64,000 bases of DNA from NCBI GenBank assembly GCA_016932785.1, contig JAFGCJ010000002.1:209777-273776 (forward strand), read 5' to 3'. Position 1 is the stretch's first letter, and each line of letters begins with the position of its first letter. Source of the stretch: Candidatus Dojkabacteria bacterium (GTDB lineage Bacteria; Patescibacteriota; Dojkabacteria; SC72; JAFGCJ01). Shown here piece by piece: positions 3,201-64,000 of the stretch. The notes below the pieces were generated by a model. That model did not search any database, was not told the DNA's origin, and was given only the letters and a program-made list of their open reading frames with translations. The position numbers and the translations under genes are program-made.

Positions 3201-4054
3201 AGCTGCAACGCATTCCTTGCTACAGTTCCAATAATATCTGTATATTGGCCGAAACCCTGAGCTTCTTGAACAAAAAGCATTGCCTCATCAGCATCAGCAC
3301 ACATAGCCGCAAGCCAGAAAAATTTTAATGAAGTGACAGAGACCAGGCCTACATGAGTTCCTTTTTTGACGTCGGAAATGAGATCAAGATATCTGAACCT
3401 CTCCGGATTCTCAGCTCTGGCACTTTCCAATATTGATACCGACGGATATTGGAAAACCGGCTCAATTTCACCCATAACTAAACCCTGAAAAGCTTTAACA
3501 CGCTGGTATTTACTTGTTTCCCCATCCACATCACAAAGTCTATCGATCAATACCTCCGCCTCAGGATTTACTGCTACAAATTTACGTGCCTGACTATTAG
3601 ATAGTCCGCCGCCTCCATTCGAAGAGATACCCTTCAATTTTGCTATAAGGTCGTGTTCTCTCCAAGAAAGAACGTGAGTTCTTACTATCGACAAGTAAAA
3701 AGCTTTATCCTCACCGGAAAAGAGTCGCATCATTCCTGAAATGGACAGGTCCCGACCGTCCTCGACTAAATCTGGGCCCACTTCTAAAGCTGACTCAAGC
3801 TCTGTTCTTATAGCCAAAAGGAAACAACATTGAGGTTTTATCCTCTCATATTCATCGGCGGTACAGCCCTCTATAAAATCAGGGGTTTCAAGCCAGGCTT
3901 GAGCTTGCTCGAGCTTTTCTGCAATATACTCACATTGAGCATCGATAACCTCAGGACTTTCTTGATTTTCCGGATTAAGCAAAACCAGAGCTTCTGAAAC
4001 ATCCCGAACAGATGTTCCCAGCGCCTCTAATTCGCCTTCGCTTGCTTTAGCCAT
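251..4054 (-). CDS. large hypothetical protein (1267 aa), acidic, no obvious TM segment, basic Gly/Asn/Lys/Arg tail
   Basis: Uninterrupted 3.8-kb ORF. I recognise no family motif. The C-terminus reads GGNGGNGGGKKGTRKRTSKKLRRAKD. It is co-oriented with the two paralogous ORFs upstream. Confidence 0.7.
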   Translation of the reverse strand: MAKASEGELEALGTSVRDVSEALVLLNPENQESPEVIDAQCEYIAEKLEQAQAWLETPDFIEGCTADEYERIKPQCCFLLAIRTELESALEVGPDLVEDGRDLSISGMMRLFSGEDKAFYLSIVRTHVLSWREHDLIAKLKGISSNGGGGLSNSQARKFVAVNPEAEVLIDRLCDVDGETSKYQRVKAFQGLVMGEIEPVFQYPSVSILESARAENPERFRYLDLISDVKKGTHVGLVSVTSLKFFWLAAMCADADEAMLFVQEAQGFGQYTDIIGTVARNALQLLFQGEPDLEMIRAASLSLDAAFLLEHLNEDLVRGLINVAIKKFYGGDTDTSLEQVSSFRSLVLILAEEMWNVDSEALTLEEALMLVDKCHDTPDSQEWPESLRDPRAAVISIFLHDLTAYADWPEEDRTRLIEILYLMIEDNVLDPNVFMSSQEYDAEVQSYGDIPDRWFGAGPASALREIVTDVAGRLTEPFSIRKDSRKAEVLSSEDFFGEIFNLSEVRYDRDLLNPWAPLPETDSKTAKLLVEALRRYFLTKFAIGYKEQVEEHREFRFDGTYPLLMSDIIPLDLESMDRDEALWRVQEVNSTAARIFKGTFYDYLVQQAGPAAKAADVSREKFFELGSAMTGYPVELCLQLFTDVCGVVGIEVPDEIDEEKIAGLKAYIDMMYFCDDDILIPYLAPRSELHYEVMHALFGGDGNIVPLSTVRDEFASYDSVLAISQNVLARKASDDEILSIAGDVYRRVLVSIVRHTSDWSSSNLETAHQRGDFAREMVGKYLAGGVRLETELQQSIWEDYWYGYLPVEVLRAGGANTDFGYIPETRDYIREQSPAGLPKLEGAISALSEVADRLSDFSSAISLARDVTDLLHGSDGVGISAFPNLVGEAKQQVLDTFSPLFPGWAPRYVADLGAVLLSMNNEVQGRIVSGQVGVAELRQSIGEELSAALDKANSAWMTLCGFSNEGLTVVDLSINTGASPAEDFSSDTVEDSLFELVHQAGESIKDLDEAVDSHCVKAQLAAWKPGIEGEDLREMISTAVKVRDDLRGSGKVTRKLEVIDDEVLEERLSAWKDSLVSLLSDDTVRAAILSARNVGELVDAIEGKQTEVISRTMESGLDTLKMHPLFLPLRELNKKYGKAPVRRFVVALIGDKSFRKAKDDTLLIDILCNSQNERLSMDVVDLRTIDRRLDMLCALDFGRTDEAMELEMEREWLQGVQRRGGNGGNGGGKKGTRKRTSKKLRRAKDTADRFGLRVEDVTEDMPVAYYR

Positions 4055-4129
4055 AGATCACAATAATAGATTTACCTCTAGAAGCGTATTATACTATAGG
4101 TTGAGAATGTTGTGCCATAGGTGCCAATT

Positions 4130-5730: not shown

Positions 5731-6089
5731 AAAAATCTAAATAAGATAATTTATTAGTGCTTATTATAGACGAAATTGGAGGTCAACTCAATCCCATAGT
5801 GTGAGAAAATTTATTAACCACGTATAATCTCCGTCACATCTACACAACACTATTTATTATTCAACCCCAAAAATGTATAATTATATAGGATTTCATTGAT
5901 TTACATATGTCAATGAAGTTTTTCTTTTAATAGACCATTTCATGCATTTAGACAAGTTTTGTCTAGACGCTGAAGGTTCCTTAACAATCAAAGGGCATCC
6001 TTTTTGATTAAGCCGATGGCCGGCAAGATTGCACGAAACTCCGGATAGCTTGGTGCAGTGCTGCTGGTCATCCTTACTCAAACAAGGAG

Positions 6090-31041: not shown

Positions 31042-31118
31042 TGGGGTGGAAGGTGGGAGTTGAACCCACAACAACCTGTACCACAAACAGGCGCTCTGCC
31101 AATTAAGCTACTTCCACC
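31042..31118 (-). tRNA. tRNA-His (anticodon GTG), with encoded G-1, C73 and CCA
   Basis: Manual cloverleaf: G-1 then GTGGAAG/CTTCCAC acceptor, anticodon arm CCTGT-TTGTGGT-ACAGG, T arm GTGGG-TTCAACT-CCCAC, and a C-CCA end. Confidence 0.9.
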
Positions 31119-51649: not shown

Positions 51650-51727
51650 GGTGGATGTAGCTCAATTGGTTAGAGCGCCTGTTTGTGGCACAGGAGGTTG
51701 AGGGTTCGAGTCCCTTCTTCCACCCCA
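51650..51727 (+). tRNA. tRNA-His (anticodon GTG), second divergent copy, with G-1, C73 and CCA encoded
   Basis: Manual fold: G-1 then GTGGATG/CTTCCAC acceptor (a U6-U67 mismatch), anticodon arm CCTGT-TTGTGGC-ACAGG, T arm GAGGG-TTCGAGT-CCCTT. Confidence 0.8.
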
Positions 51728-53191
51728 GTTTTCATTTTCGATAGCAGATTCCACAGAAACCATATGAGACCAAGGTTCTTTGAAGTTCCAACCAACTTCT
51801 TTATCGTCTAGCGTTAAACCTTCGCTTATAGACATCACTATTTTCCTCTTCTCTTCAAGAGTGCCGTTACTAAAGACTTCCTGTAGACCGAAGCATTGTT
51901 CGTAAAAAAGTTCCAACGACTCACGCACATCGTCTCTGTTGTACTTCACATCACCTCTGAGTTCTTCGAGTTCACTGACTCTCTTGTTTAATATTTCTTT
52001 CTGGTCCAGATACTCATCTTTTGTCAGCTCGCCCTCAATTCTCATACTCAGAATTTTGTCTAGTTTTTGTAGGGTATCAGATAGTTGATTTTCTATCTCC
52101 TCACGCCGATCACATTCCTGTGAAAAATCGACCTCAAGCTGTTTTCTAGTCTTTTCCTTTAGAATCTCCAGATACTTTTTTGAAAGTGAAATCTTAGAAA
52201 TATGCCCAACAAACTGATCTTCCAAATCTTCTGCTCTAATTGGTTTGTTGTCACACTTACCTCTTCGCTTCGTGCAACAGTAATATGTATAGGGCTTGTC
52301 GTTCTTATATTTTGTATATGCAGTTATTGCACAACCACACCTTGGACACTTCATTATTCCTTTGAAAGGATGGTAATGCCTGCTTTGATATGGCTTAGAG
52401 TCGTCGTCCAGGACTTCTTGTAATTCAAGCCACTTCTGTTTTGTAATTAGCGGCTCCCATTTACCTTTATCGCTTTCATCATTTACATCTTCAAAATAGC
52501 CACAGTATGACGGTTTTCGTAGGAGTCTATGTAATTCTGATTTAACGAAATGCTTCCCTCGGCGGGTCTTTACGTCCCATTCATACAACAGATTTACAGC
52601 TTGAACAAGGTTTAATCTATTCGAAATAATCTCATCAACAAGACGGACATAGAACTTAGAGGTTTTGGGATTTGGAGCTATGTTCTTCTTCCCTTTCTCT
52701 GTTCCCATATTTATGTAAAACGCTGGAGCATAAGAGCACCATTCCCCTCGTTTTCTCTTCTCTCTGAGTCCCCTTTTGGTATTAATACTAAGCTCTCTTG
52801 AGTATTGAGCATTTGAACCAAATTCGACTCCTAAAAGGATATCGTTGGCGTTCTCGTTGGTAATGCTTCTATATCGGGTACGAATTTCAAGAAGTTTCCC
52901 GTCAGTTAGCAACTGCATAATAATGCCTGACTCTTGCGGATTGCGGCTTAGACGGTTTGTATGCCAGATTAGAACCCTTTTACAATGCCCCTTCTTGATA
53001 TTCTCGATCAATTCATTGAAACCATCACGTTGTCCTGGCTTTCTAGCAGACTTCGATTCCTTGATGATTCTGGCTATTTTGAGGCTGTTCTCAGCGGCAT
53101 ATTCCTTTAACTCCCTCTCCTGAGCCGGTAAGGACAGTGCCTGCTTCTCTGAACTTTCACTAGATTTTCGACAATAACAAAAATACTCCAT
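51662..53191 (-). CDS. large serine recombinase (integrase-type)
   Basis: N-terminal resolvase block YCRKSSESSEKQALSLPAQ and VLIWHTNRLSRN. There is also a recombinase domain, a zinc ribbon CPRCG...CCTKRRGKC and a coiled coil. The last ~22 codons are antisense to tRNA-His. Confidence 0.9.
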   Translation of the reverse strand: MEYFCYCRKSSESSEKQALSLPAQERELKEYAAENSLKIARIIKESKSARKPGQRDGFNELIENIKKGHCKRVLIWHTNRLSRNPQESGIIMQLLTDGKLLEIRTRYRSITNENANDILLGVEFGSNAQYSRELSINTKRGLREKRKRGEWCSYAPAFYINMGTEKGKKNIAPNPKTSKFYVRLVDEIISNRLNLVQAVNLLYEWDVKTRRGKHFVKSELHRLLRKPSYCGYFEDVNDESDKGKWEPLITKQKWLELQEVLDDDSKPYQSRHYHPFKGIMKCPRCGCAITAYTKYKNDKPYTYYCCTKRRGKCDNKPIRAEDLEDQFVGHISKISLSKKYLEILKEKTRKQLEVDFSQECDRREEIENQLSDTLQKLDKILSMRIEGELTKDEYLDQKEILNKRVSELEELRGDVKYNRDDVRESLELFYEQCFGLQEVFSNGTLEEKRKIVMSISEGLTLDDKEVGWNFKEPWSHMVSVESAIENENWGGRRDSNPQPPVPQTGALTN

Positions 53192-53288
53192 TACAATACT
53201 ATTTATATATATTCATTATATAATATTCCCATATAATATCCAGTATATATTGCCAATATATTTTCCATATAAGAATATCAATATTATG

Positions 53289-53675
53289 TTACTTATCACT
53301 CTTGTCATGCTCATCTCCGAGAACTTCCTCTAAAGTGATCTCTTTCTCTTCTTCAGATACAATTCCTCTCTCTATGTCGCCAGTAAGGGATTCGTTGTAC
53401 TTCTTCACTTCTTTCAGATATGCGTTTTTCACTGAATTTTCGTAATTTCGCCATTCGTCTTTGTCTTCGATCCTGACGATATTCAGATACTTACTTCCGC
53501 AACGAACGGACGGAGGTACAACTCTAAGGGAATCTTCAGATAATGAAGACCTCATAACACGAAAACCAATAATGATAAGTCCTGAATATCTCAACTCTAC
53601 CTGAGCTAACATATCACCTTTTTGATTCAGAATTATCTTGATTTTAGCCTTTTTAATATCAAACTTTTCTTCCAT
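53289..53675 (-). CDS. SpoVG-like small nucleic-acid-binding protein (tentative)
   Basis: The pattern AQVELRYSGLIIIGFRVMRSS...LRVVPPS resembles the SpoVG core. This is from memory of the family pattern only. Confidence 0.35.
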   Translation of the reverse strand: MEEKFDIKKAKIKIILNQKGDMLAQVELRYSGLIIIGFRVMRSSLSEDSLRVVPPSVRCGSKYLNIVRIEDKDEWRNYENSVKNAYLKEVKKYNESLTGDIERGIVSEEEKEITLEEVLGDEHDKSDK

Positions 53676-53759
53676 TATTATTTGAACTTAACTAAATTAG
53701 GTATAATACAAACGAGAGATATTGTTTCGACAATATCACTCCATTACAGAGGCGGTCCT

Positions 53760-53915
53760 CTACATCTTCGCCGGTGCTGAGGCCGCCTTGTTATTATGCA
53801 TATCATTTCCTTTCACTGCTAAATTTAGATACAAGCCCCGCTTTATTTGGTTACAAATTATTTTTGCTATGGTTTCAATGTCTTCGATTTGTTCAGGAGT
53901 GAGGTCATATTCCAT
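53760..53915 (-). CDS. unlisted 51-codon ORF MEYDLTPEQIEDIETIAKIICNQIKRGLYLNLAVKGNDMHNNKAASAPAKM
   Basis: I found it by manual translation. Its ATG overlaps the stop of the upstream ORF (ATGGAATATGA). It is below the track length cut-off. Confidence 0.35.
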   Translation of the reverse strand: MEYDLTPEQIEDIETIAKIICNQIKRGLYLNLAVKGNDMHNNKAASAPAKM

Positions 53916-54204
53916 CAATAAACTCCTTCCATTCTGGCGGTATATAGGCTGTCTTTCTTGGGATATCTTTATAGAAGCCGGAAATACGAATACCCCTCAT
54001 GACCTGATTCCTATTCCAGGTGTATCGAGGAGTTCTGTGATAGCCGTAATGAAGAATAAAGTAGAGAAGTGCGTAGTCGCCTATCAGAGATATGCGTTTT
54101 TCTTTTCTGAGGGCTTTAAAAACTCCAGAGAATGAACGGTTGGGGTTGGATGAAAGAAGTCGCTCAAGTACATCCTGAAGACTTGTAGCCGTTTGGTATT
54201 GCAC
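53905..54204 (-). CDS. hypothetical protein (99 aa)
   Basis: Co-oriented with the element block. The overlapping plus-strand ORF 53722-54135 looks like low-quality sequence. Confidence 0.45.
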   Translation of the reverse strand: MQYQTATSLQDVLERLLSSNPNRSFSGVFKALRKEKRISLIGDYALLYFILHYGYHRTPRYTWNRNQVMRGIRISGFYKDIPRKTAYIPPEWKEFIDGI

Positions 54205-54306
54205 TGATGTTCAACCTAATCTTAGATATAAACATCTAAATACCACGAATGAAAATGAAAACTACTAAATAACTTCTTAAAAAGTTCTTAGAAAAATCTC
54301 GACTGA

Positions 54307-55398
54307 CTATTCTTCTGCTGGAATATACTCTAACTTATAGCCCTTTTTTGTATGAATATACCTATCAAACTCTTTTTCACCCATTCCCGCCTGTCGACAG
54401 AAGGTTTTTAGCCCATACTTCACCCCATATAGGTCTTGATAAATATATATATTGTCTTTCTTACCTTTAGAAGTACACACCTTGGATTTCTTAAGCTTAT
54501 CAATAATAAAGTCACCAATCTCACCGTAATCTTTATATTCACCCCTATTTTGGAATAGATAAAGAAGAAAAAAGTAGCATCTTGACTGATTACCAATGTC
54601 AATCTCTTTACCATTTTGGAATTTTATAATTGCTCTGCCTGGATAAAACGAGAGTTCTTTTTCGACAAGGACCTTCTTGACTTCCTTAGCTACAAGATCG
54701 CTTTGTGCAGCTTTTATTCTATCCCAGTTGATTCTCATAACATATACCGTATCAATTGTTCGAGTCGGTATAGGTAGAACTTTCCCACCAAGAAACTTAC
54801 CATATCTCGAGGCAAACCTATTTGGAAGCCTAGAAAGAAAGGAAAAGTGGTCATTACGGTACACATATACAATACCTGTTGACGACAGAAGCTTTTTAGG
54901 CGACAGGTCATCTCTAGTAAAAGGAGGCAGAGGCCTTAGTACTTCCCTCGTATAAAGAAAACCTAGGGTATGAGCCCTTTTATAGTGTATTAACCGAAGG
55001 CTAACATAACCAAATTGACTATCATATGATTGAGATCCCCTGTTGGGAAATTGATCCTCCTTCCTCGGACAATAGAATGATTTTGTATAGACATTCAGTA
55101 ATGTGTTATTTGGTGGTAAAGTATCACTTTTAGGAAAATTACCAGAAAAAATAAGCGCAGGGAAAATCCTGCTCTTCTCAGAATCCTCAGTAAACTCGGA
55201 ACGTATCAGATCAATAATCTTATTGGCCTCTTCAATACATGCATCCGGATACCTTGAATCAGTCATAAAATCAAAAATTCCTACGCTCACGGCTACGAAA
55301 GCGTAGGAATCTATAGCCGTGAATTTATTTAAATTACACAAATTATACGTTTTCAACGTTTTTTCATAAAGGGGAAGAATATTCGCAGGATTAAACAA
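54307..55398 (-). CDS. hypothetical protein (363 aa)
   Basis: Long ORF with no recognised motif. Confidence 0.6.
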   Translation of the reverse strand: MFNPANILPLYEKTLKTYNLCNLNKFTAIDSYAFVAVSVGIFDFMTDSRYPDACIEEANKIIDLIRSEFTEDSEKSRIFPALIFSGNFPKSDTLPPNNTLLNVYTKSFYCPRKEDQFPNRGSQSYDSQFGYVSLRLIHYKRAHTLGFLYTREVLRPLPPFTRDDLSPKKLLSSTGIVYVYRNDHFSFLSRLPNRFASRYGKFLGGKVLPIPTRTIDTVYVMRINWDRIKAAQSDLVAKEVKKVLVEKELSFYPGRAIIKFQNGKEIDIGNQSRCYFFLLYLFQNRGEYKDYGEIGDFIIDKLKKSKVCTSKGKKDNIYIYQDLYGVKYGLKTFCRQAGMGEKEFDRYIHTKKGYKLEYIPAEE

Positions 55399-55404
55399 TT
55401 GAAA

Positions 55405-56019
55405 CTATTTTAGAAACATCCTATACAAATCTGATTTACTTACACCAGCGATCATTTTCTCTAGCTCTAATAACTTCTGAAACTTCTTCGTAAATTCACC
55501 GTTATATAACGTCCTTTTAATCTCTCCTTTCAATTTATCACGTTTCTCATACAAGTCTAGCATCTTCTTAAAATACCCGAAGGAACCATTATAGCTAATT
55601 CTCTGACTCTTATAGTTAAGATCCATACACTTCCTACAACCAAAATAATGGCTATTTGGTGCCATATATAAGGTCGAAACTCTGTTTCCACAATAATCCC
55701 CATCCTTCACCAGTCCACACTCTATCCAATATCTATGTCCACCAAAACTACACGGTGTAGTTACTATCGGAAAAGAATAATCATAGTCCTTTTTCTCACC
55801 AGTACTATGATCAGTAACAGTATAAACAAACCTTATTGATTTTGCATAATTGAAAACATCCACATGAATACTCACTCTAGCCGTTTCTTCTTCGTACAGC
55901 TTCCAAATAACTGTATCCCATTTGGACCCCTTAAAGAATCCGAGTCTTTTTAAATCCGACACACTGATTTTCCGAGAATCTTCTACTGTATACCTATCAG
56001 AATAGGAATATCTGCTCAT
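55405..56019 (-). CDS. hypothetical zinc-ribbon protein (204 aa)
   Basis: CSFGGHRYWIEC...YCGNRVSTLY...FGCRKCMDLNYKSQR is a Cys-pair zinc-ribbon pattern. Confidence 0.6.
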   Translation of the reverse strand: MSRYSYSDRYTVEDSRKISVSDLKRLGFFKGSKWDTVIWKLYEEETARVSIHVDVFNYAKSIRFVYTVTDHSTGEKKDYDYSFPIVTTPCSFGGHRYWIECGLVKDGDYCGNRVSTLYMAPNSHYFGCRKCMDLNYKSQRISYNGSFGYFKKMLDLYEKRDKLKGEIKRTLYNGEFTKKFQKLLELEKMIAGVSKSDLYRMFLK

Positions 56020-56064
56020 TTTGTAAGAAATAAAATAACCGAAATCATTAAGGATTATACAACT

Positions 56065-56370
56065 TCACGATGACATTCTCTTGTCTGCAAAAGCTGAAAC
56101 CAAAATACACACAATAAAAAAAATTGGGACAAGCATTGCAAGGACAAACAACATCCAATTAGGAAGGTCAGGAAAAACAAGACCACTCAATTTTTCTAGT
56201 ATTGGGTTTAAATAACTGAAGAGCACATCAGGAATAACTATTAGACTAATGAAAAGAGTAAGCAAAACCCCAAATATGAGATTAATCTTGCCATATTCAG
56301 ACCTTAGTTCGGTTTGAATGATACTCTTCAAAAGGCTCCAGAACTCTTTCATGTCTAGATTTATACACAT
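56065..56370 (-). CDS. small membrane protein (about 2-3 TM segments)
   Basis: Hydrophobic helices. It shares a 1-nt start/stop junction with the upstream ORF. Confidence 0.5.
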   Translation of the reverse strand: MCINLDMKEFWSLLKSIIQTELRSEYGKINLIFGVLLTLFISLIVIPDVLFSYLNPILEKLSGLVFPDLPNWMLFVLAMLVPIFFIVCILVSAFADKRMSS

Positions 56371-56759
56371 TAATCAAATCTTGAATATTTCGAATAATCT
56401 TCATATGTATCAGTTCTAGATTTGCAGATTTCAAAACCCGCAACTATCATGGTTAATAGCATTCCAATGCCAAATAATATAAAACCAATATTCAAAAATG
56501 GATGAAGAATATAATTTGATCTACTGAAGAAAAGTATAGCATCACAAACACCCCAAAAAGAAAGAAGAGTCGAAAACGTAAAAACCAGAGGTTGAAGACC
56601 AAAGGCTTCGGCAAGAACACCTCCCAAAGTAACTGCTTTATCGATCAAGACCATACCTACTACTATTTCTTCTTTAGTAAGATATCGACAAAAGCCTTGT
56701 TTTGACCCAACAAATGTTCCATCATATTTGCAAGCAGAAAGAGATACCAATCCAGACAT
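56370..56759 (-). CDS. small membrane protein (about 3-4 TM segments)
   Basis: Hydrophobic helices. Tightly coupled to 56065-56370. Confidence 0.5.
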   Translation of the reverse strand: MSGLVSLSACKYDGTFVGSKQGFCRYLTKEEIVVGMVLIDKAVTLGGVLAEAFGLQPLVFTFSTLLSFWGVCDAILFFSRSNYILHPFLNIGFILFGIGMLLTMIVAGFEICKSRTDTYEDYSKYSRFD

Positions 56760-56772
56760 GACAAACTAAGAA

Positions 56773-57468
56773 TTAAATTAAAGAGAATGACTCCTCAGCC
56801 AGTTTTTGACTTACATCAACTGCCTCATCCAAAAAAGAACTCATTAGATCCTTTGTATATTTCAATTGATCATTTTCTTGATAGTAGTCGTGCAGAAGAA
56901 AAAAGAATCTATCGGGCAATAATCGAGAATCAAACGGTGTAGGAGGTAAAAACATCTCTGCAAGTTGCTTCTTTTCCATTGGACCTAGAATATAATGTGC
57001 CTTTCTGTCACCGTCATTAAACGAAAAATCTACAGCAACATCGGTTGACTTATTAGTAATACTATTGTCTTTATAAAAAGCCTTCCTCACTGCTGATACC
57101 ATCTCCGACATTGTTTTCTCCACAGGCCATATCCAGATTAGTTTTACACCAAAACGATTTATTGTCTCCCACCCGACTCTGTCAAAGGCTTTTTTATAGA
57201 AATTTTCACAGATAGTCTTTGCAGAAATTGTGTTCTTCGGCTGGTTAACCTCAAGCGCAACCTTCTTTGGACTTATATATCTTAATAAAAAATTCTTTCT
57301 CTGAACATACGTAAATGCCTTCTGTTCATCATTGGAGGTAATCTTAGCTCCGAAAACAGACTCTGCATCTACATGATCTACAGACTTTTCTTCAAGATCG
57401 ACTGCCGAAACGAATTTTATCAATCGCATCATAGCTCCCAGAAACAAACTTATATGGACATTGTACAT
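56773..57468 (-). CDS. hypothetical protein (231 aa)
   Basis: Long ORF with no recognised motif. Confidence 0.55.
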   Translation of the reverse strand: MYNVHISLFLGAMMRLIKFVSAVDLEEKSVDHVDAESVFGAKITSNDEQKAFTYVQRKNFLLRYISPKKVALEVNQPKNTISAKTICENFYKKAFDRVGWETINRFGVKLIWIWPVEKTMSEMVSAVRKAFYKDNSITNKSTDVAVDFSFNDGDRKAHYILGPMEKKQLAEMFLPPTPFDSRLLPDRFFFLLHDYYQENDQLKYTKDLMSSFLDEAVDVSQKLAEESFSLI

Positions 57469-57529
57469 TAAATATCATTAGCAAGTTAAGACCTTGACTG
57501 ATAAATGTGTATTAAAATTTGGATCCCTT

Positions 57530-58207
57530 TTATAGAGCAGCCCAATCTGAATATCCATCAGGCTGTGCAAGAATATACACCCCTTCATCACAAGCAACCA
57601 TAAGACTCTCCCAGTCCTCAAAATCTCTATTTCGATATACATACCTATACCCCTGATTTTCCCTTTTCCACTCACCCGAAGCATATTTTGCAGACATCCG
57701 ATTCATCACAGTCTCTACGTCCTCCTTTGATAATTCTTCACCTTCACATCCCATATCAGTAAATGTAATCATTCCACCATATACAAGATCCTCGCCCTTT
57801 TTGAACTCAATAAGGACATCATAATCTCCCTTATCCCAGAAAATGCTTGAAAACAAAGGTAGCTCATTATCCTCAGTTTCGCTTGGATCACCAAGGAGGT
57901 CTCTTAAATCTGAAATTTTCTTCTTATTGAAATCCTCAAGCCTTACTGAAAGATTCTGATATCCTTGATCCTCCTCTTCCTCGTTGTCATCATCCTCCGA
58001 GGCATTCTTATTGCCTTCTTCACTTTTCTTACTTTCCGTATTCTCTGAGTCATTAGAACTATTCCAATTGGACCCCAAGGAGAAACACGCACAACACGAA
58101 ACTATTAGAATTATAACAATAGTCAAAATCACAATAACAAGAGGAATTTTGCTCTTTTTCTCGGTAGGTTTTGCTGAATCAGGTGAAGAACTAGTACTTT
58201 TAGGCAT
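57530..58207 (-). CDS. membrane-anchored protein with an acidic linker
   Basis: N-terminal TM segment IPLVIVILTIVIILIVSCCACF, then an Asp/Glu/Asn-rich linker and a C-terminal globular part. Confidence 0.55.
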   Translation of the reverse strand: MPKSTSSSPDSAKPTEKKSKIPLVIVILTIVIILIVSCCACFSLGSNWNSSNDSENTESKKSEEGNKNASEDDDNEEEEDQGYQNLSVRLEDFNKKKISDLRDLLGDPSETEDNELPLFSSIFWDKGDYDVLIEFKKGEDLVYGGMITFTDMGCEGEELSKEDVETVMNRMSAKYASGEWKRENQGYRYVYRNRDFEDWESLMVACDEGVYILAQPDGYSDWAAL

Positions 58208-58302
58208 ATGAGGACCTCTAAGAGCTTAGTTAGTTCAATTATACGAAATACTTCAGGCTATATCAAAATTAATGCTTTCACTAAATATTAGCAAATTAAA
58301 AT

Positions 58303-58329
58303 AGTTCCAAAATCCGTCCCACCACCTAC
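58303..58329 (+). repeat. C-rich cassette-boundary repeat, copy 1 (right part missing)
   Basis: AGTTCCAAAATCCGTCCCACCACCTAC. Identical to copy 2 over 32 nt when 5 nt of left flank are included. Confidence 0.85.
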
Positions 58330-58342
58330 GCTAGACATAAAA

Positions 58343-58972
58343 TCATTTAGATAATAGCTCTATCGCCTTTTCAGTATTCATACCTTCAGGATTCGATAAT
58401 GTCTCTTTATAACACCTTCTGTATGTATCCTTAGTTGTATTCAACGTGAAAAGATTGCTTGTTATCTTTACTTCATCCACCCCTTCAAAGTTGCTGCTGT
58501 ATACATAAGCAGCAAAATCTGTACTTTCATACTTTACACTATCCATAGGATAATCACTCTGATAAACAACTGTAATAACAAGAACATTTCCACTAAGTTT
58601 TATGCTAATTAACTCATTACTAGAATATAAAGGGTTAGACTCGACCATGATACTCACATAATCAGTGATACTATCAATATCAAGCTCATAGGTTTCACCT
58701 GCAAACGGGTCCTCATCGGAATTAAAGATGAGCTCGTCCTCAGTTACACGATTATCATCATTATTATTATCTCTATTATCATTCCTTACACTGTCCGATT
58801 CAGCAGAAGATGGTTCTTTGTCAACTTGGGAATCGCCCTCTCTGAAACCAGGAATCACAATGAGGAAAACAATCATAACAGAAACACATAGCCCAAATAG
58901 AGCAATTAATCCGAAAACATTTACTATTTTCTTATTCTTCCGAAAAAAAACAGAAATATTTTCTTGGTTCAT
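58343..58972 (-). CDS. membrane-anchored protein with an Asp/Asn-rich linker
   Basis: N-terminal TM helix and a DNRDNNNDDN linker. It has the same architecture as 57530-58207. Confidence 0.55.
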   Translation of the reverse strand: MNQENISVFFRKNKKIVNVFGLIALFGLCVSVMIVFLIVIPGFREGDSQVDKEPSSAESDSVRNDNRDNNNDDNRVTEDELIFNSDEDPFAGETYELDIDSITDYVSIMVESNPLYSSNELISIKLSGNVLVITVVYQSDYPMDSVKYESTDFAAYVYSSNFEGVDEVKITSNLFTLNTTKDTYRRCYKETLSNPEGMNTEKAIELLSK

Positions 58973-59099
58973 ATATGTCTAGACAAAGTTTATTGCCACA
59001 TATAAAGTCTATTCAAATTCTCTCATATAATAGAAAACAAATTAAGCTCTTTACCAGAAGCATAGAAAATTTTAGGAATCATATTGTCAATTGCAAAAT

Positions 59100-59133
59100 A
59101 GTTCCAAAATCCGTCCCACCACCTACCCCAAAA
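59100..59133 (+). repeat. C-rich cassette-boundary repeat, copy 2
   Basis: AGTTCCAAAATCCGTCCCACCACCTACCCCAAAA. Confidence 0.85.
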
Positions 59134-59202
59134 TTATAAAAATTCTTTACAGCAAAACAATATTTCCTCAATCATCTATAATCATAATCTGATAATTTCG
59201 TA

Positions 59203-60147
59203 CTATCTATCATCCTCTTGTGGCAAGCCTAAAACATCTCTGGCAAAAACATCATGATTTATGGTGAAACAACTAGCAATCCTTCTAAAATTCTCATATC
59301 CAGCATCATAAGAAGCTTGTTCTTCAATTGCTCGTCCTTTTGCCATACCAAAAATAGAAGCAGCCCCAATACCCAATAGTCCCAAAACCATAACATTTTC
59401 AATAGCTGTGGAAGATGCATCCATTTGATGCATGTATTTACCTATTGCGTCTAGTACAAAATATCCAGCAACAGCGGGGGCTATAGCAAGACCATACTTG
59501 ACGGCAGCTTTCCTACCTGCATGATGAATATGTTCATATTCATGTGCTAATACCCATGCTGAAGGTCTTTTCATTGCTGTCTCTAGTAGTTTACCCATGA
59601 ATCTCTTGGCTCTATCTCGTTGTTCTTCGATTGGTCTACCAGGCATGAGTTCCCCCTCTTTTGCTGCCCGTAAATAGCGTCTTTTTCTCTCGGGATCACC
59701 GGCAAAAACCTCTACATCTTTTTTCTTCAACAATTGATATGGCCAGAAAGCAGGAAAAAATGTCTGAAAAAACTTAGTATTCATAAATTTCTGCCAAAAA
59801 TCTTTTTCTTCTCTTGGAGTACTTGGAATCTCCTCACCCATTCGTTCTAGAAGGTCTACGTAAATACCCCTAATATTGTTCACTAGTCTTCTTTGATTAA
59901 TAACAATCGCCTGTCTAGTAACATCATATGAGGCTAACTCCGGACCAGATAATTCACCATCGGTAATAACCAATGGCTTCAAAACAGAATCTGAATATCC
60001 GATTTCTGATAAAGCCTGCCCAAGAGCGTCTCCATCCACTTGGAATAAGGCGTCACATTCTTCCATATTTTCATATTCTACCTTTACAGTCGGAGAAGCA
60101 GATCCACTTTCAGCGAAGGCCTCTACCGTTGGAGATATCTCACTCAT
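59203..60147 (-). CDS. HExxH zinc-metalloprotease-like membrane protein (M48/M56-like)
   Basis: WVLAHEYEHIHH motif followed by two hydrophobic helices. Confidence 0.55.
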   Translation of the reverse strand: MSEISPTVEAFAESGSASPTVKVEYENMEECDALFQVDGDALGQALSEIGYSDSVLKPLVITDGELSGPELASYDVTRQAIVINQRRLVNNIRGIYVDLLERMGEEIPSTPREEKDFWQKFMNTKFFQTFFPAFWPYQLLKKKDVEVFAGDPERKRRYLRAAKEGELMPGRPIEEQRDRAKRFMGKLLETAMKRPSAWVLAHEYEHIHHAGRKAAVKYGLAIAPAVAGYFVLDAIGKYMHQMDASSTAIENVMVLGLLGIGAASIFGMAKGRAIEEQASYDAGYENFRRIASCFTINHDVFARDVLGLPQEDDR

Positions 60148-60254
60148 ATGTTTATTTTCTGGCCAATATAATAACTTCAGTATATCACGAGTCTAATCGA
60201 TTTCATAAAATGACCCTGCGATCCAGAGAGTAGTTTTATCATTATTTACCACAT

Positions 60255-60288
60255 AGTTCCAAAACCCTTCCCACCACTTACCCCAAAC
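60255..60288 (+). repeat. C-rich cassette-boundary repeat, copy 3
   Basis: AGTTCCAAAACCCTTCCCACCACTTACCCCAAAC. It is followed by TTTACT-17 nt-TATAAT upstream of the ATG at 60362. Confidence 0.85.
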
Positions 60289-60361
60289 CCCATAGTATTT
60301 ACTTTTTCTCATCTACTTTGTATAATCGCATTGTTCTATTCTTAATTGAGAAAAGGATTCA

Positions 60362-60925
60362 ATGGCAAAACCTGATGTAGACCCCATAACAGCTTTAAAT
60401 GAACAGCTCGACCTAGATCCTGATCAGCTGCAAGGCTTTACGGATGAATTTTCATCTGAGCTGCATCGACTTGCAGAACAATATAGAATGACACTTAAGG
60501 CCAGAGAAACAATCCAAGAAAGATTTCCTCAATTAGCAGAGCATGATCCTGAAAACTATGACGTTACAGTGGGCAAAGCATGCTTTGTAGCATTTCAGGA
60601 ACCTTTATATGTCGAACTCGAAATGACAGTTCGTGACAATTCTGGCCCGGAAGCTCGTGTTTATTGTGTCCAATGGCTAGACAAAGATTATCCTGACCTT
60701 GGTCAAAGAAAAGGATTCACCGTACTTCAACACAAAGACCCCGAAACACATCGTGCTAACGACAGAGCTTTAATAGAAAAATGGGATGAGATTCCTGCAA
60801 CCGACGAGTATGGTCAAACAATTATTGGGATTGCGCTTTATAAGTGTGCCAAAAAAATTGTTAAAGACTCGAAAGACAATATTCCAATGTTGCTTGATAC
60901 AGTACCAGTACCAGTTTCAGATTAA
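60362..60925 (+). CDS. hypothetical protein (187 aa)
   Basis: ORF with no recognised motif. Confidence 0.55.
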   Translation: MAKPDVDPITALNEQLDLDPDQLQGFTDEFSSELHRLAEQYRMTLKARETIQERFPQLAEHDPENYDVTVGKACFVAFQEPLYVELEMTVRDNSGPEARVYCVQWLDKDYPDLGQRKGFTVLQHKDPETHRANDRALIEKWDEIPATDEYGQTIIGIALYKCAKKIVKDSKDNIPMLLDTVPVPVSD

Positions 60926-60942
60926 CAAAATTCTGGAATCCA

Positions 60943-60976
60943 AGTTCCAAAATCCTTCCCACCACCCACCCCAAAA
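60943..60976 (+). repeat. C-rich cassette-boundary repeat, copy 4
   Basis: AGTTCCAAAATCCTTCCCACCACCCACCCCAAAA, lying between convergent genes. Confidence 0.85.
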
Positions 60977-60988
60977 CCTTAGTAACCC

Positions 60989-62200
60989 TCACCTAACCAG
61001 CCCTGTCCTCCTGATAAGTTCAATGCCAATTTTCGCGTCAATAACTGGACTACCCATCACCGTACATATGACAGCTTTATTCTGCAGTCCAAGCATACCT
61101 CTTGGAGCTGTACTTACATGCGATAAACTAGGAGCCTCACGAGTATACTCTTTGGTAAAAAATGGATGAAAATCACTCGTACCAAATACGTCTTTATTTC
61201 CTCGATATGCATCGAAAAAATGCGAACCAAAAGCCCGGACAAAGCCATACTTTGGTGCCCCGGTTTTAGCAATTAACAAAAACAATTTAACTTTGTCACC
61301 CGGTTGTTTTAATGCGTGATAGCCTCCAGCTAAATCATATACCACATCAACATTTGATGCAGAATCAATATCACTTTCAGGCGTAATCCTACCTAAAATG
61401 TCTGAGGGAAGTTCTGGTAACTCAGCCTCAATACGATCGCCGGGTGACTTATAGCCATTATTCCCCTTTGCTGTAATAAATATTCGATCTGGCAATCTTG
61501 GCAATGCGGCAATCGCAAAGAGCAAATTTTTGGCAGTCTTTCCAAACCCAAGGATACCAACACTAAAGGGTGCTCCTTGTTCCAAAAGATGCTCCATTAT
61601 AACAGCCGCGCTGGATACAGTACGGTAAGCTACAGGATAATCAATAACTGCGAGTGTGCCTCTATGATCCAAAATCTGCAACACACTCTGAAATCTCGGT
61701 AAACTTTTCTTTAAATTATTGGGGTTGTCAACAAACATACGAACCCCAGTAACACCAGCCGTCAAATCAGACCCAAGCATAAGCCTAACCCTCGCTCCAT
61801 TCCACTCACCTCCTATATAGCCAGTTCCCCACTTAAATTCACAGATTCGTTCCAAAGGTGATTTCCCCTCAACACCGAAAAGAACATCTCGAGAAATATC
61901 ATTAACTATCTTAAATGTATCTACAGACAGAGGCAACTGCTCTAACACCGTTTCTGATGATATATGCAGTAATTGATTTCCAATATTGGGTTTTATTGCC
62001 CCTTCTTTCGGGTCAATCTCATACAAAACACTAATACCATCAGCACCGACAATAGAGATTCTTTTTGAAGAAGTACCTCTGACATCTACATCAGGAAATC
62101 GCTCAAGCGAAACTCTAGCCTCTGTACTGAAAATGGAATGATCTTCTAACTGCTCACCTTGTTGATTCATCTCTTTGCCTGAAGGTGTTAGACCTGCCAT
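60989..62200 (-). CDS. hypothetical protein (403 aa)
   Basis: Long ORF. A possible Rossmann-like GILGFGKTAKNL is not enough for a call. Confidence 0.6.
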   Translation of the reverse strand: MAGLTPSGKEMNQQGEQLEDHSIFSTEARVSLERFPDVDVRGTSSKRISIVGADGISVLYEIDPKEGAIKPNIGNQLLHISSETVLEQLPLSVDTFKIVNDISRDVLFGVEGKSPLERICEFKWGTGYIGGEWNGARVRLMLGSDLTAGVTGVRMFVDNPNNLKKSLPRFQSVLQILDHRGTLAVIDYPVAYRTVSSAAVIMEHLLEQGAPFSVGILGFGKTAKNLLFAIAALPRLPDRIFITAKGNNGYKSPGDRIEAELPELPSDILGRITPESDIDSASNVDVVYDLAGGYHALKQPGDKVKLFLLIAKTGAPKYGFVRAFGSHFFDAYRGNKDVFGTSDFHPFFTKEYTREAPSLSHVSTAPRGMLGLQNKAVICTVMGSPVIDAKIGIELIRRTGLVR

Positions 62201-62249
62201 GAGCCTTACTAAAAAATAAGATACTTAATATTAAGCATCAAGAGCAGAA

Positions 62250-62603
62250 TTATTCTCTAATCTTCTTCCCGCCGATCACATGAAAATGAAGATGTGGAGT
62301 GCTCTGCGATTTCCCAAAGCCGGTCCTAAACTGTGCTCCAATTCTTTCCACGTCAATTGTCTCTAATATGTCCTGTGCAACCTTCACTATTTCCCACATC
62401 AATTCTTTATGCTTATCCTCTAAATCCCGCATGTCATGAATATGTTCCTTTGGAATAATCACTGCGTGAAATTCGAAAAGTGGATTTGTGTGGTAAAAGG
62501 CTAATACGTTGTCCGATTCGTATATTTTCTCGACCTTCATTTTACCTTTCAGAATCTTGTCACAGTAAATATCATAGTCACCGGGCTTAGCCATATGACG
62601 CAT
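62250..62603 (-). CDS. HIT (histidine triad) family protein
   Basis: C-terminal HLHFHVIGG histidine-triad motif. Confidence 0.8.
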   Translation of the reverse strand: MRHMAKPGDYDIYCDKILKGKMKVEKIYESDNVLAFYHTNPLFEFHAVIIPKEHIHDMRDLEDKHKELMWEIVKVAQDILETIDVERIGAQFRTGFGKSQSTPHLHFHVIGGKKIRE

Positions 62604-62615
62604 TACTTAACTAAT

Positions 62616-62966
62616 TTATTTCCCAAAATTATCACGAATAGCCTGAATTACATCTGTTACATCACCAACGAAACGCCAGAATGTAATACTTTCTTCCCTA
62701 GATTCGTTGCCATGTACATGAAATTGACCAGAAGGAAGAATCAGGCTTTCCCCCTTGTTCAGAATAATCTTCTTTGTATTATCACCATCAAATACTGTAT
62801 AAACCGACTGCCCCTGAATTTGAAACAGTTCTTCTTCAACAGTTCTGTTATGCTTATCAAGAGATTCTCCAGGAGCTAGGTAAAGAAGTCCTATGCTCGA
62901 TTCTTGGTCTGAGTGAAGTACAGTTATCTCTCCTTGTGGTATTTTGAATGTTTCAACCATGTTCAA
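62616..62966 (-). CDS. cupin domain protein
   Basis: About 116 aa with cupin-like GESLDKH...E and GESLILPSGQFHVHGN blocks. Confidence 0.55.
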   Translation of the reverse strand: MNMVETFKIPQGEITVLHSDQESSIGLLYLAPGESLDKHNRTVEEELFQIQGQSVYTVFDGDNTKKIILNKGESLILPSGQFHVHGNESREESITFWRFVGDVTDVIQAIRDNFGK

Positions 62967-62993
62967 TGCTGATTATAGATGTATTAAGAAAAA

Positions 62994-63027
62994 AGTTCCA
63001 AAATCCATCCCTCCACTTACCCCAAAA
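62994..63027 (+). repeat. C-rich cassette-boundary repeat, copy 5
   Basis: AGTTCCAAAATCCATCCCTCCACTTACCCCAAAA. Confidence 0.8.
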
Positions 63028-63120
63028 CCTACCACGACAACAACTACCCTACTTTCAATTGCCCCAATATTTCCAATGTGATTAAATGGAAGAAATGTAA
63101 TCACACCTATTAGCAAGAAT

Positions 63121-63849
63121 ATGATACCAGATAAAGACGCTCAAATCATTTCTAGGGAGACGCAACAGCAGCAAGATACACTAGCTCTGTTGCGTAGTAA
63201 CGGACTCGGAGAGTTAGTCGAAGCATGTGCGCATGAACTCAACCTCGTTTCATTCGAAGAAAGATCTGAAATTCCAATTCCATTGTCTCTTATCCCACAA
63301 TCAGAGACAGAACTTGACCTTGGGTCAGACGTAAGTGATACCTGCAGAGAGTTACTAAACATCATGGAAGAGCCACAACACGCGTTTGAATATCCCTTTT
63401 TTATAGGTGGATTTACTTCATCGCAAAATATATTGTCATTAGAATCACTTGCGCTTCTATACCCTGAAGGGACAACATTTCATACCAATAGTACGCTTCC
63501 CGACAAAGATCTTCTAGGAAAAGCGGTTTCAGACAATGTAGAAAAAGGAGGTAATGTTCACGTCTTAGGACACACCCATCCAGAGCCCTCTAATGAGACA
63601 AAGGAAGAATCTGTCGCAGCAAAGCTCAGCGCAGAAACAAAAACAAAATATGGGATAAGAGATGTCGGATTAAACATATCTCTGAATGACATATACCAAC
63701 TTGTCTCATTCAGAAGTACCCTGGAAGAAAGACATGACTTCAGTCTAACCGTAATGATTTGTGTATTGATGTTTAACGGAGAAATACACTTTATTTATAT
63801 TGAGAATGACAAACTACTCAGGATTACGAAGGAAATTTCTTCTGACTAA
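63121..63849 (+). CDS. hypothetical protein with a JAB/MPN-like GHTHP...SLND motif
   Basis: VHVLGHTHPEPS followed about 30 aa later by SLND. It is similar in style to 20984-21754. Confidence 0.4.
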   Translation: MIPDKDAQIISRETQQQQDTLALLRSNGLGELVEACAHELNLVSFEERSEIPIPLSLIPQSETELDLGSDVSDTCRELLNIMEEPQHAFEYPFFIGGFTSSQNILSLESLALLYPEGTTFHTNSTLPDKDLLGKAVSDNVEKGGNVHVLGHTHPEPSNETKEESVAAKLSAETKTKYGIRDVGLNISLNDIYQLVSFRSTLEERHDFSLTVMICVLMFNGEIHFIYIENDKLLRITKEISSD

Positions 63850-64000
63850 TTAGTATGTCTCTCCGAAATAAGTCACAAGTCTAAAAAAGCATTAAAAACG
63901 TCTTCCCACCTAACCATCCAGGACCTGAACTCGATCCTTCCTCATTTTTACTTCACACCAAATGAAAATTCTCTCAATCGAGTAAGATAAATCTATACCG

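Follow-up and report, generated by a model that had tools for sequence, protein, structure and literature searches.

Stacking of mobile elements beside one conserved gene is known in other bacteria. In staphylococci, Ccr-type large serine recombinases (LSRs) insert SCCmec and other staphylococcal cassette chromosome (SCC) elements at the 3′ end of rlmH (orfX), and the composite islands found there are tandem, are bounded by repeated integration-site sequences and include some units without ccr genes. Here we describe a locus of this kind in a Candidatus Dojkabacteria bacterium, a member of the candidate phyla radiation (CPR, Patescibacteria). In a 64,000-nucleotide stretch of assembly GCA_016932785.1 (contig JAFGCJ010000002.1, positions 209,777 to 273,776 of the forward strand; hereafter the window, whose numbering we use throughout), five copies of a C-rich motif, M1 to M5, divide the DNA beside a tRNA-His gene and an LSR gene into an element, E, and a row of small gene units, U1 to U5. 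The CPR host, the tRNA-His target, the very short tRNA core and the cassette-size units distinguish this locus from the known stacks. SCC, too, has another target and another host, and its units are many kb long; moreover, the site promiscuity of Ccr has been demonstrated experimentally, whereas the locus described here is known from sequence alone.

The closest described system is that of the ssrA genomic islands (ssrA-GIs) of Dehalococcoides, which the original paper itself compares with the SCC composite islands (McMurdie et al. 2011, PMC3146451). There, the gene for a CcrB-like LSR, DsiB, lies on the reverse strand and adjoins attL at the ssrA 3′ end, and tandem islands are split by co-oriented repeats of that 3′ end. 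A conserved 15-bp motif that cannot be aligned to ssrA lies just upstream of each repeat, and 15 islands without an integration module were proposed to be cis-mobilisable or accreted (PMC3146451). The 15-bp motif corresponds to the left arm (P arm) of the Dojkabacteria sites. In contrast to the ssrA-GIs, the target here is tRNA-His and not tmRNA, the host belongs to the CPR, and the part shared with the target is AC/CCCA (4-6 nt, the slash marking the putative crossover) as against 20 bp. The units here hold 1-3 genes in 0.7-2.6 kb, and among the neighbouring genes tested Pfam revealed no second small serine recombinase of the DsiA/CcrA type.

The tycheposons of Prochlorococcus likewise integrate at tRNA genes, where new arrivals push older ones deeper into the island and repeats mark former junctions (Hackl et al., bioRxiv 10.1101/2020.12.28.424599). 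Most of them use tyrosine recombinases (27 of 937 use LSRs) and leave direct repeats of partial tRNAs, whereas the repeat here is mainly a non-tRNA P arm; the units here are also smaller, with no recognisable replication genes among them. Phage serine integrases (A118/LI, Bxb1, phiC31; PMC3783163) have the same set of Resolvase, Recombinase and zinc-ribbon domains as the enzyme of our locus, and the distal motif of one kind of half-site is likewise offset from that of the other by about half a helical turn. The displacement is 6 nt in the His subfamily as compared with 5 in the published sites and in most of the wider family, and the right arms are poorly conserved. Canonical phage enzymes do not re-use occupied sites, yet stacks occur in the tRNA-His family. 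Integrons, finally, resemble the array in having short, compact, unrelated gene units split by a repeated recombination-type site near a recombinase gene, but here the enzyme is a serine recombinase, attC hairpins are absent, gene orientations are mixed, and the anchor is a tRNA gene instead of an attI site with its Pc promoter.

Our preferred reading, to which we assign a probability of roughly 0.65, is that the M copies are att junctions of a tRNA-His-specific LSR and that the array arose by tandem accretion of one autonomous element and five recombinase-less units. This reading builds on the layout of the site, on the conservation of that layout at the ends of related elements, on breakpoints at the last nucleotides of the tRNA and on stacks in two other genomes, all of which are directly observed.

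Results

The first-pass annotation of the window had described five co-oriented copies of the motif, all of them intergenic, and none in the other ~58 kb. This description was confirmed (Table 1). The 34-nt consensus AGTTCCAAAAYCCNTCCCNCCACYYACCCCAAAA is matched in full at M2 to M5, and its 22-nt core also at M1 (58304-58325), all on the plus strand and outside the listed open reading frames, with zero copies expected from dinucleotide-preserving shuffles. Position weight matrix scores in the 64-kb window were 44-52 bits, and neither this matrix nor a profile hidden Markov model found a further copy there on either strand. The identity of M1 and M2, noticed earlier over 32 nt, extends to 37 nt (the 32 nt preceded by AAAAT), and beyond these M1 diverges (..CCTAC/GCTAGAC).

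An overlapping public contig (L001, Logan SRR13394437) starts at window position 59097 and reaches ~10 kb beyond the window end, bringing the searched sequence to 74 kb. Within it, M occurs solely downstream of tRNA-His B and co-oriented with this tRNA; both the remaining 58 kb of the window and the last 7.5 kb of the extension are free of copies. A weak sixth candidate proposed at 63895-63919 scored -2.3 bits and is no copy, but a real, decayed sixth (M6) lies beyond the window end, followed by a doubtful seventh (M7).

Table 1. Features of the tRNA-His locus, in window coordinates.
Feature	Position	Strand	Description
tRNA-His(GTG) A	31042-31117	-	Inverted relative to B; no adjoining recombinase; shorter D-loop
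tRNA-His(GTG) B	51651-51727	+	Found by ARAGORN and Rfam; putative attL: B-type half-site (T-arm GGTTCG, N14), then putative crossover AC/CCCA
LSR	51662-53191	-	509 aa; Pfam Resolvase + Recombinase + Zn_ribbon_recom; integrase of element E
Antisense tRNA-His tail	51662-51727	-	~20 C-terminal residues of the LSR; counterparts at L115 20617-20682 and L028 11507-11572
Element E	51728-58329		Recombinase, core and four more genes; ends in M1
Element E core	53289-56019	-	128 aa (53289-53675), 99 aa (53905-54204), ~321 aa (54307-55272), 204 aa (55405-56019)
Structured leader	55273-55330	-	Counterparts at L025 8390-8455, L027 8389-8455, L028 7894-7960
Element E distal genes	56065-58207	-	101, 129, 231 and 225 aa; GC 0.357
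M1	58303-58329	+	44.3 bits; P-type half-site ..CCACCTAC/, right end of element E
U1	58330-59099	-	One gene, 209 aa; GC 0.33; closed by M2
M2	59100-59133	+	52.0 bits; A-run + AGTTCC + N20 + AC/CCCAAAA
U2	59134-60254	-	One gene, 314 aa (JW710_02045, hypothetical protein); closed by M3
M3	60255-60288	+	49.8 bits; right arm CCCAAACCCCATAGTATTTA
U3	60289-60942	+	One gene, 187 aa; closed by M4
M4	60943-60976	+	50.3 bits
U4	60977-62993	-	Three genes: 403 aa (function unknown), HIT-family, cupin; closed by M5
M5	62994-63027	+	48.9 bits
U5	63028-64000 and on to M6	+, -, +	242 aa (+), 177 aa (-), DUF1295 protein (+); the latter two on L001
M6	65617-65647		Window-equivalent position beyond the window end, on L001; decayed sixth copy, 26.9 bits
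M7	66277-66307		Window-equivalent position, on L001; doubtful seventh copy, 10.6 bits

The start of L001 coincides exactly with M2. Since the first 32 nt of M2 are identical to M1, a break at this point is expected of a k=31 assembly, which is the k value of Logan, and by itself it is no evidence of rearrangement. Searches with 29-31-nt patterns of the motif gave zero matches in JGI metagenome and IMG/VR contigs. The 22-nt core produced 23 matches (L002-L024) in a genome collection that does not include the source species, and we discarded them, as all lie within one conserved coding gene: the core matches by chance a coding segment that is strongly conserved across many bacterial phyla, and whose translation suggests the ABC-F-type ATPase motif GWILELDRG. 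Pattern scans for M must therefore include its ACCCC part.

The spacing of the site separates M from the tRNA that it resembles. In six of six tRNA-His genes examined the 3′ end has the layout GTTC-N14-AC/CCCA. M1 to M5 consist of an A-run followed by GTTC-N20-AC/CCCA, with M1 departing after AC, and three sites from relatives (the far site of L028 and both the junction and the far site of L115) share with them the layout GTT[CG]-N20-AC/CCCA. Over the 14 nt nearest the core, M and tRNA are similar in register, GTCCC, for example, lying at the same distance in both; the T-loop-like GTTC of M, however, sits 6 nt further out than that of the tRNA. The wider family, in which 22 loci carry inverted repeats, behaves similarly. 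A pseudo-T-arm, an A-run followed by GGTTCG, is present in 15 of the 18 such loci in which we inspected the DNA outside the left repeat copy. In these 15 its GTTC lies 16-20 nt (mostly 19) from the core, compared with 11-14 nt (mostly 14) for the GTTC of the true T-loop, a shift of 5 nt and sometimes 6; the T-loop of L104 reads GTCC and falls outside what the scan measured.

In serine integrases, the motif bound by the zinc-ribbon domain (ZD) lies 5 bp nearer the crossover in attB than in attP half-sites (Rutherford et al. 2013, PMC3783163). The spacing shift seen here matches this published difference, so that the tRNA arm behaves as a B-type and the left arm of M as a P-type half-site of one and the same recombinase. 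The left part of M (A-run, AGTTCC and 20 nt) would thus mimic the T-loop and acceptor region of the tRNA, except that its distal recognition motif lies further out from the crossover by about half a helical turn. Such mimicry accounts for the loose likeness to a tRNA 3′ end that had been noticed on first reading; the likeness is real but not collinear, given the additional 6 nt between GTTC and the shared AC/CCCA. M and tRNA-His have only AC/CCCA in common, and the remaining 27 nt form a conserved half-site that recurs in other genomes. We ruled out that M is a literal, decayed or collinear copy of the tRNA on the grounds of its longer spacing and its own conserved sequence, and because a search of the window for displaced 3′ fragments of tRNA-His found none apart from the two genes themselves. 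Of the earlier suggestion that the repeats are decayed att scars from serial insertions at a tRNA-His, the serial insertions are therefore retained and the decayed tRNA 3′-end copies are not.

Beyond the putative crossover, the right arms of M2 to M5 start with CCCAAA(A/C)C and so retain the CCCA tail of the tRNA, as would be required if each unit had once completed the tRNA. Conservation among M3 to M5 extends ~9 nt beyond the crossover (CCCAAAACC), and the far site of L115 has a right arm, CCCATGCCCCATAGTAATTA, very similar to that of M3. A symmetry-based search of right arms for P′/B′ half-site motifs yielded an apparent GAAAC, which we rejected as probably representing conserved C-terminal codons of the recombinase. 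A family-wide search for direct repeats of the target tRNA 3′ ends was uninformative for the His subfamily and exposed the inverted-repeat architecture of other subfamilies.

The LSR of the window (PF00239, 8e-21; PF07508, 2e-8; PF13408, 3e-12) is encoded at the end of element E that faces the target. Its reading frame runs antisense over the last 66 nt of the intact tRNA-His B, and the C-terminal tail of the protein, ..WGG/RRDSNPQPPVPQTGALTN, is antisense tRNA-His read-through. The best homologues are 46-57% identical, and the named ones come from CPR lineages. We fetched the contexts of four homologues with 50-54% identity (P0002, P0003, P0008 and P0009; loci L025/L026, L027, L028 and L115/L116). 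In three of these loci, L025/L026, L027 and L028, a tRNA-His(GTG) gene has its 3′ end overlapped by the homologue in the same geometry as in the window. The fourth, L115, holds a stack in which the homologue (recA) belongs to the second element, while the tRNA-His is overlapped by another recombinase (recB).

Searching JGI metagenomes with a profile added 80 more distant relatives with 27-40% identity (L032-L111). In most of these an oppositely oriented tRNA gene abuts the 3′ end of the recombinase gene, and the targets comprise at least 12 specificities (His, Pro, Asn, Ser, Gln, Trp, Leu, Ala, Glu, Arg, Tyr and Phe). The near-universal T-loop sequence GGTTCRA appears to be the distal recognition motif of the family, and this could explain an easy switching between tRNA targets. 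In a sequence search of the PDB, no solved serine recombinase proved more than a distant relative of the window enzyme, and exact look-ups of the recombinase and of the 209-aa protein of U1 found neither recorded. Searching a viral collection for the recombinase family returned only distant, mostly N-terminal matches and no sign that the elements are phages.

Sites of the M type recur at the ends of related elements. The matrix derived from the window scored 28.1 bits at positions 5771-5801 (-) of L025 and 29.3 bits at 4051-4081 (-) of L028, values that were reached by none of 300 shuffles (maxima ~4 ± 3) and compare with 2-10 bits at control loci. When these two sites were included in a broader matrix, L115 scored 32.4 bits at 6000-6030 (-). 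Each of the three has the orientation of the tRNA-His and is found 4-6 kb from the recombinase in the direction of the cargo, where an element could plausibly end.

Among the distant relatives, three sites could be compared within each of L100, L104, L055, L108 and L050: a tRNA site of the form B-O-X, a far co-oriented site of the form P-O-Z and an internal site of the form P-O-X. Pairwise identity breaks exactly in the terminal 3-7 nt of the tRNA (GCA, TCACAAA, CGACCA, CCGCCA, CTGC). Breakpoints at this place are the hallmark of site-specific recombination whose crossover falls ~4 nt short of the tRNA 3′ end, and their pattern marks the tRNA site as attL and the far co-oriented P-arm site as attR. 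M shares the orientation and layout of this site.

Two of the genomes examined contain complete elements stacked one upon another. At L027, element 1 (rec1, ~5.2 kb) ends in ..TCTCCTCCCACCACCAAC/CCCATGACTGTTTTTCATGC within the 3′ end of a divergent 554-aa recombinase, and the right arm there resembles in type what follows tRNA-His genes downstream. At L115/L116, recB overlaps the tRNA-His, and its C-terminal tail, ..WGGRWDSNPQPSVPQTDALTN, reads through the tRNA in antisense just as that of the window enzyme does. About 9 kb further on, a P arm (GTTC-N20-AC/CCCA) joins the 3′ end of recA, the product of which is 51% identical to the window recombinase; the recA tail changes directly past ..EWG, and the recA element ends at the 32.4-bit far site. 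Thus, elements of the His subfamily insert at an already occupied tRNA-His, displace older elements and leave P-O junctions behind, which already implies a relaxed choice of site. Once displaced from the tRNA, the recombinase has its tail swapped for unrelated sequence, as seen in recA of L115 and rec2 of L027, and the C-terminus therefore depends on the position in the stack.

The 22 distant members with inverted repeats have an architecture of their own. Near-perfect repeats flank the recombinase gene, with lengths of 84-194 nt in the 18 measured (one of ~31); these loci include L036, L039, L040, L042, L045, L047, L050, L053, L054, L062, L069, L071, L073, L084, L096, L100, L104 and others. 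The first copy begins within the tRNA, 4-8 nt before its 3′ end. The second, 120-540 nt upstream of the gene, together with the P arm makes up a complete attP-like junction in inverted orientation; the third, co-oriented P-arm site (attR) of L050, L055, L100, L104 and L108 is found 1-8 kb further out. When excised, the circle of an inverted-repeat member would hold two inverted attP sites dividing the recombinase from a cargo segment, an arrangement reminiscent of the 2-micron plasmid of yeast with its inverted FRT repeats.

The cargo of L028 (4864-7372) comprises a helix-turn-helix regulator, a DNA cytosine methylase and an EcoRII-C-type endonuclease, the latter two forming a restriction-modification pair, and at least some elements of the family therefore move defence genes. 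In the window, the two tRNA-His(GTG) genes lie 20.5 kb apart in inverted orientation, which seems unusual in so small a genome. The second gene, A, has the same GTTC-N14-AC/CCCA layout as B and is thus a potential unoccupied second target.

Three small genes of the element E core (128, 99 and 204 aa) were found by BLASTP at the same positions near the recombinase in L025, L027 and L028, and the distal genes had no significant match in Pfam or PHROG. The first core gene is preceded by a leader of 49-58 nt, which lies between a TATAAT box and the start codon and is conserved in the window and in these three loci. It can form two interleaved helices of 8 and 10 bp, the second of which is followed by a T-run and resembles a terminator; 97% of its cells are paired, compared with 29-42% in slid controls, with 7 compensatory pairs among only 4 sequences. 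The leader was found in the tRNA-His subfamily only, has no Rfam match at the gathering score, and may control the integration operon as an attenuator or pseudoknot.

The units U1 to U5 measure 0.7-2.6 kb, with 1-3 genes each in mixed orientations (-, -, +, -, +). They have no integration module and are nevertheless bounded by M sites of 44-52 bits. Whereas each copy had been placed at the left edge of the unit on its right, we consider the conserved arm of M most likely to be the right end of the left-hand unit. We found no paralogy among the units and no homologues of their genes in the cargo of related elements. Homologues of the 314-aa protein of U2 occupy ordinary gene neighbourhoods without M-like repeats, and this gene family is thus not tied to cassettes. 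The GC content is 0.33-0.37 in E, U1 and U5, 0.38-0.40 in U2 to U4 and 0.40-0.41 in the chromosome. A promoter-like site lies within U3 (60298-60326), and L001 carries housekeeping-type genes beyond M6 (a cold-shock protein and an AGOG-like glycosylase).

Several other identities of the repeats were rejected. An integron was dismissed because the adjacent recombinase is a serine enzyme and a tyrosine-recombinase domain was found in 0 of 20 neighbouring proteins scanned. DNA folds of the five copies on both strands gave minimum free energies of -0.1 to -3.5 kcal/mol with z-scores of -1.2 to +0.9, and attC hairpins were discounted, as was an integron cassette layout, given the mixed gene orientations and the promoter-like sites in or beside units. 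From the earlier idea of an integron-like array served by a recombinase other than IntI, it is thus the sites of the adjacent non-IntI recombinase that survive as the best explanation, while the integron-like mechanism, with no IntI, no attC hairpin and mixed orientations, does not. The suggested bottom-strand G-quadruplex was not upheld either: a pattern of four runs of at least three G with loops of 1-7 nt matched nowhere in the copies, and the GG/GGG/GGGG runs of all five fit a two-tetrad pattern only. A reading of M as a terminator was rejected or weak.

Discussion

How might such an array have been built? On the tandem-accretion reading, we infer that the crossover falls at AC/CCCA, 4 nt from the tRNA 3′ end, and that the window recombinase binds M. 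An incoming circular module would recombine at the tRNA-proximal site and rebuild the CCCA tail of the tRNA. Units would have entered singly at this site, each new module pushing the older ones outward and every module keeping its P arm at the distal end. tRNA-His B would then be attL and the tRNA-proximal element E the newest module, whereas U1 to U5 would be older modules, either mini-elements mobilisable in cis or trans or stripped remnants, and the decayed M6 would be the oldest junction with the chromosome. Were the M sites to recombine, a circle junction would join the left arm of M to CCCAGTTTTCATTTTCG or to the right arm of another unit, and that a deletion junction would join the tRNA, ..TTCTTCCAC, to the right arm of M2, M3, M4 or M5.

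Several observations weigh against this reading. Canonical LSRs do not recombine attP with attL, and integration at an occupied site thus needs a relaxed choice of partners. The GTTC shift of 6 nt in the His subfamily is not the canonical 5, and the right arm of M1 is atypical (GCTAGAC, without CCCA). Neither recombinase nor core-gene remnants were detected at 58.3-73.8 kb (tblastn, E<=10, which returned 14-aa noise only), so that the origin of the units as independent elements is an indirect conclusion, and the GC content of U3 and U4 is like that of the chromosome. None of the other family loci has more than two such sites per element stack among the ~85 surveyed, many of which are short, and the 74 kb searched for copies belong to a genome of at least 598 kb. 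For a presence/absence comparison, the best relatives are 63% identical for a unit gene and 54% for a flanking gene; the nearest relatives of the flanking cytidylyltransferase, ~50% identical, have no tRNA nearby and offer no empty-site comparison.

The alternative that survives best, although we regard it as unlikely, is that 51.7-65.6 kb constitutes a composite element working as an active, integron-like platform, with functional M sites dividing its cargo, in which the LSR would pair any M with the tRNA site or with that of a circular cassette and so excise, capture and reorder single cassettes today. M1 to M5 are indeed far better conserved than the unrelated DNA around them, and the conservation of M3 to M5 past the crossover is what a reconstituted complete site would show. 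The units are compact, cassette-sized and mutually unrelated, the right arm of M3 recurs at the L115 far site, and an internal att site separates recombinase and cargo segments in other family members as well. The directionality rules of canonical LSRs, however, oppose recombination of M with M. The right arms of M1 and M2 are unlike the others, and no second multi-unit array was seen among the surveyed family loci. Slightly more doubtful still is the fullest form of this idea, a serine-recombinase counterpart of the integron in which a tRNA-His-anchored LSR would capture, stack, excise and reorder single-gene cassettes through M, with the T-loop as its recognition motif.

We find it less probable again that the units are stripped remnants of recombinase-bearing elements, each having lost its integration module by deletion after a newer arrival, and that M is a functionless fossil junction, attR-type or attP-like. 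Complete elements do stack at L027 and L115, the distal M6 is decayed and the possible M7 nearly gone, and the Dehalococcoides and tycheposon papers report degenerate elements and repeats in such islands. Yet no recombinase or core-gene debris accompanies the units, and five copies of M are still nearly intact. Moreover, the right arms are not of the recombinase-coding X type (CCCAGTTTTCAT..) but share CCCAAAACC, which random deletions would not produce.

Least of all do we favour a local regulatory or structural motif (a promoter or UP element, a transcription-factor site, a Rho-utilisation tract, a G-quadruplex, or a repeat resembling repetitive extragenic palindromes or miniature inverted-repeat transposable elements), which was among the first proposals and retains little support: bottom-strand TTGGAA, a -35-like hexamer contributed by the motif, does stand 18 nt upstream of a TATAAT-like hexamer at two of the five copies (M2 and M5), four of the five lie upstream of minus-strand genes and the search for copies covered 74 kb of the genome, but promoter-like sites are not enriched (24 versus 20.3 ± 4.5), the orientation of M is constant regardless of gene direction, M4 sits between convergent gene ends, the distance to start codons ranges from 28 to 128 nt, neither strand forms a hairpin or a canonical G-quadruplex motif, the other 58 kb of the window hold no copy, and the same layout recurs in other genomes at the ends of recombinase elements, joining att-type breakpoints.

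In conclusion, CPR bacteria have tiny genomes with few recognised mobile elements, and little is understood of the ways in which they acquire accessory genes. This locus and ~85 related loci suggest that serine integrases directed at tRNA 3′ ends form a widespread family, whose att-site logic, a T-loop-like motif at two spacings, can be read from the sequence. In at least one genome, such integrases have stacked several modules of one to three genes beside a tRNA-His. Should these modules be no more than fossils, the array is a tidy new example of an already known kind of accretion. If they prove mobile, it would represent a cassette system independent of integron integrases, and recombinases with such short, well-defined sites could become tools for genome engineering. 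Were an LSR cassette platform to prove true, recognition of the T-loop would explain how the family moves among at least 12 tRNA targets in CPR bacteria.

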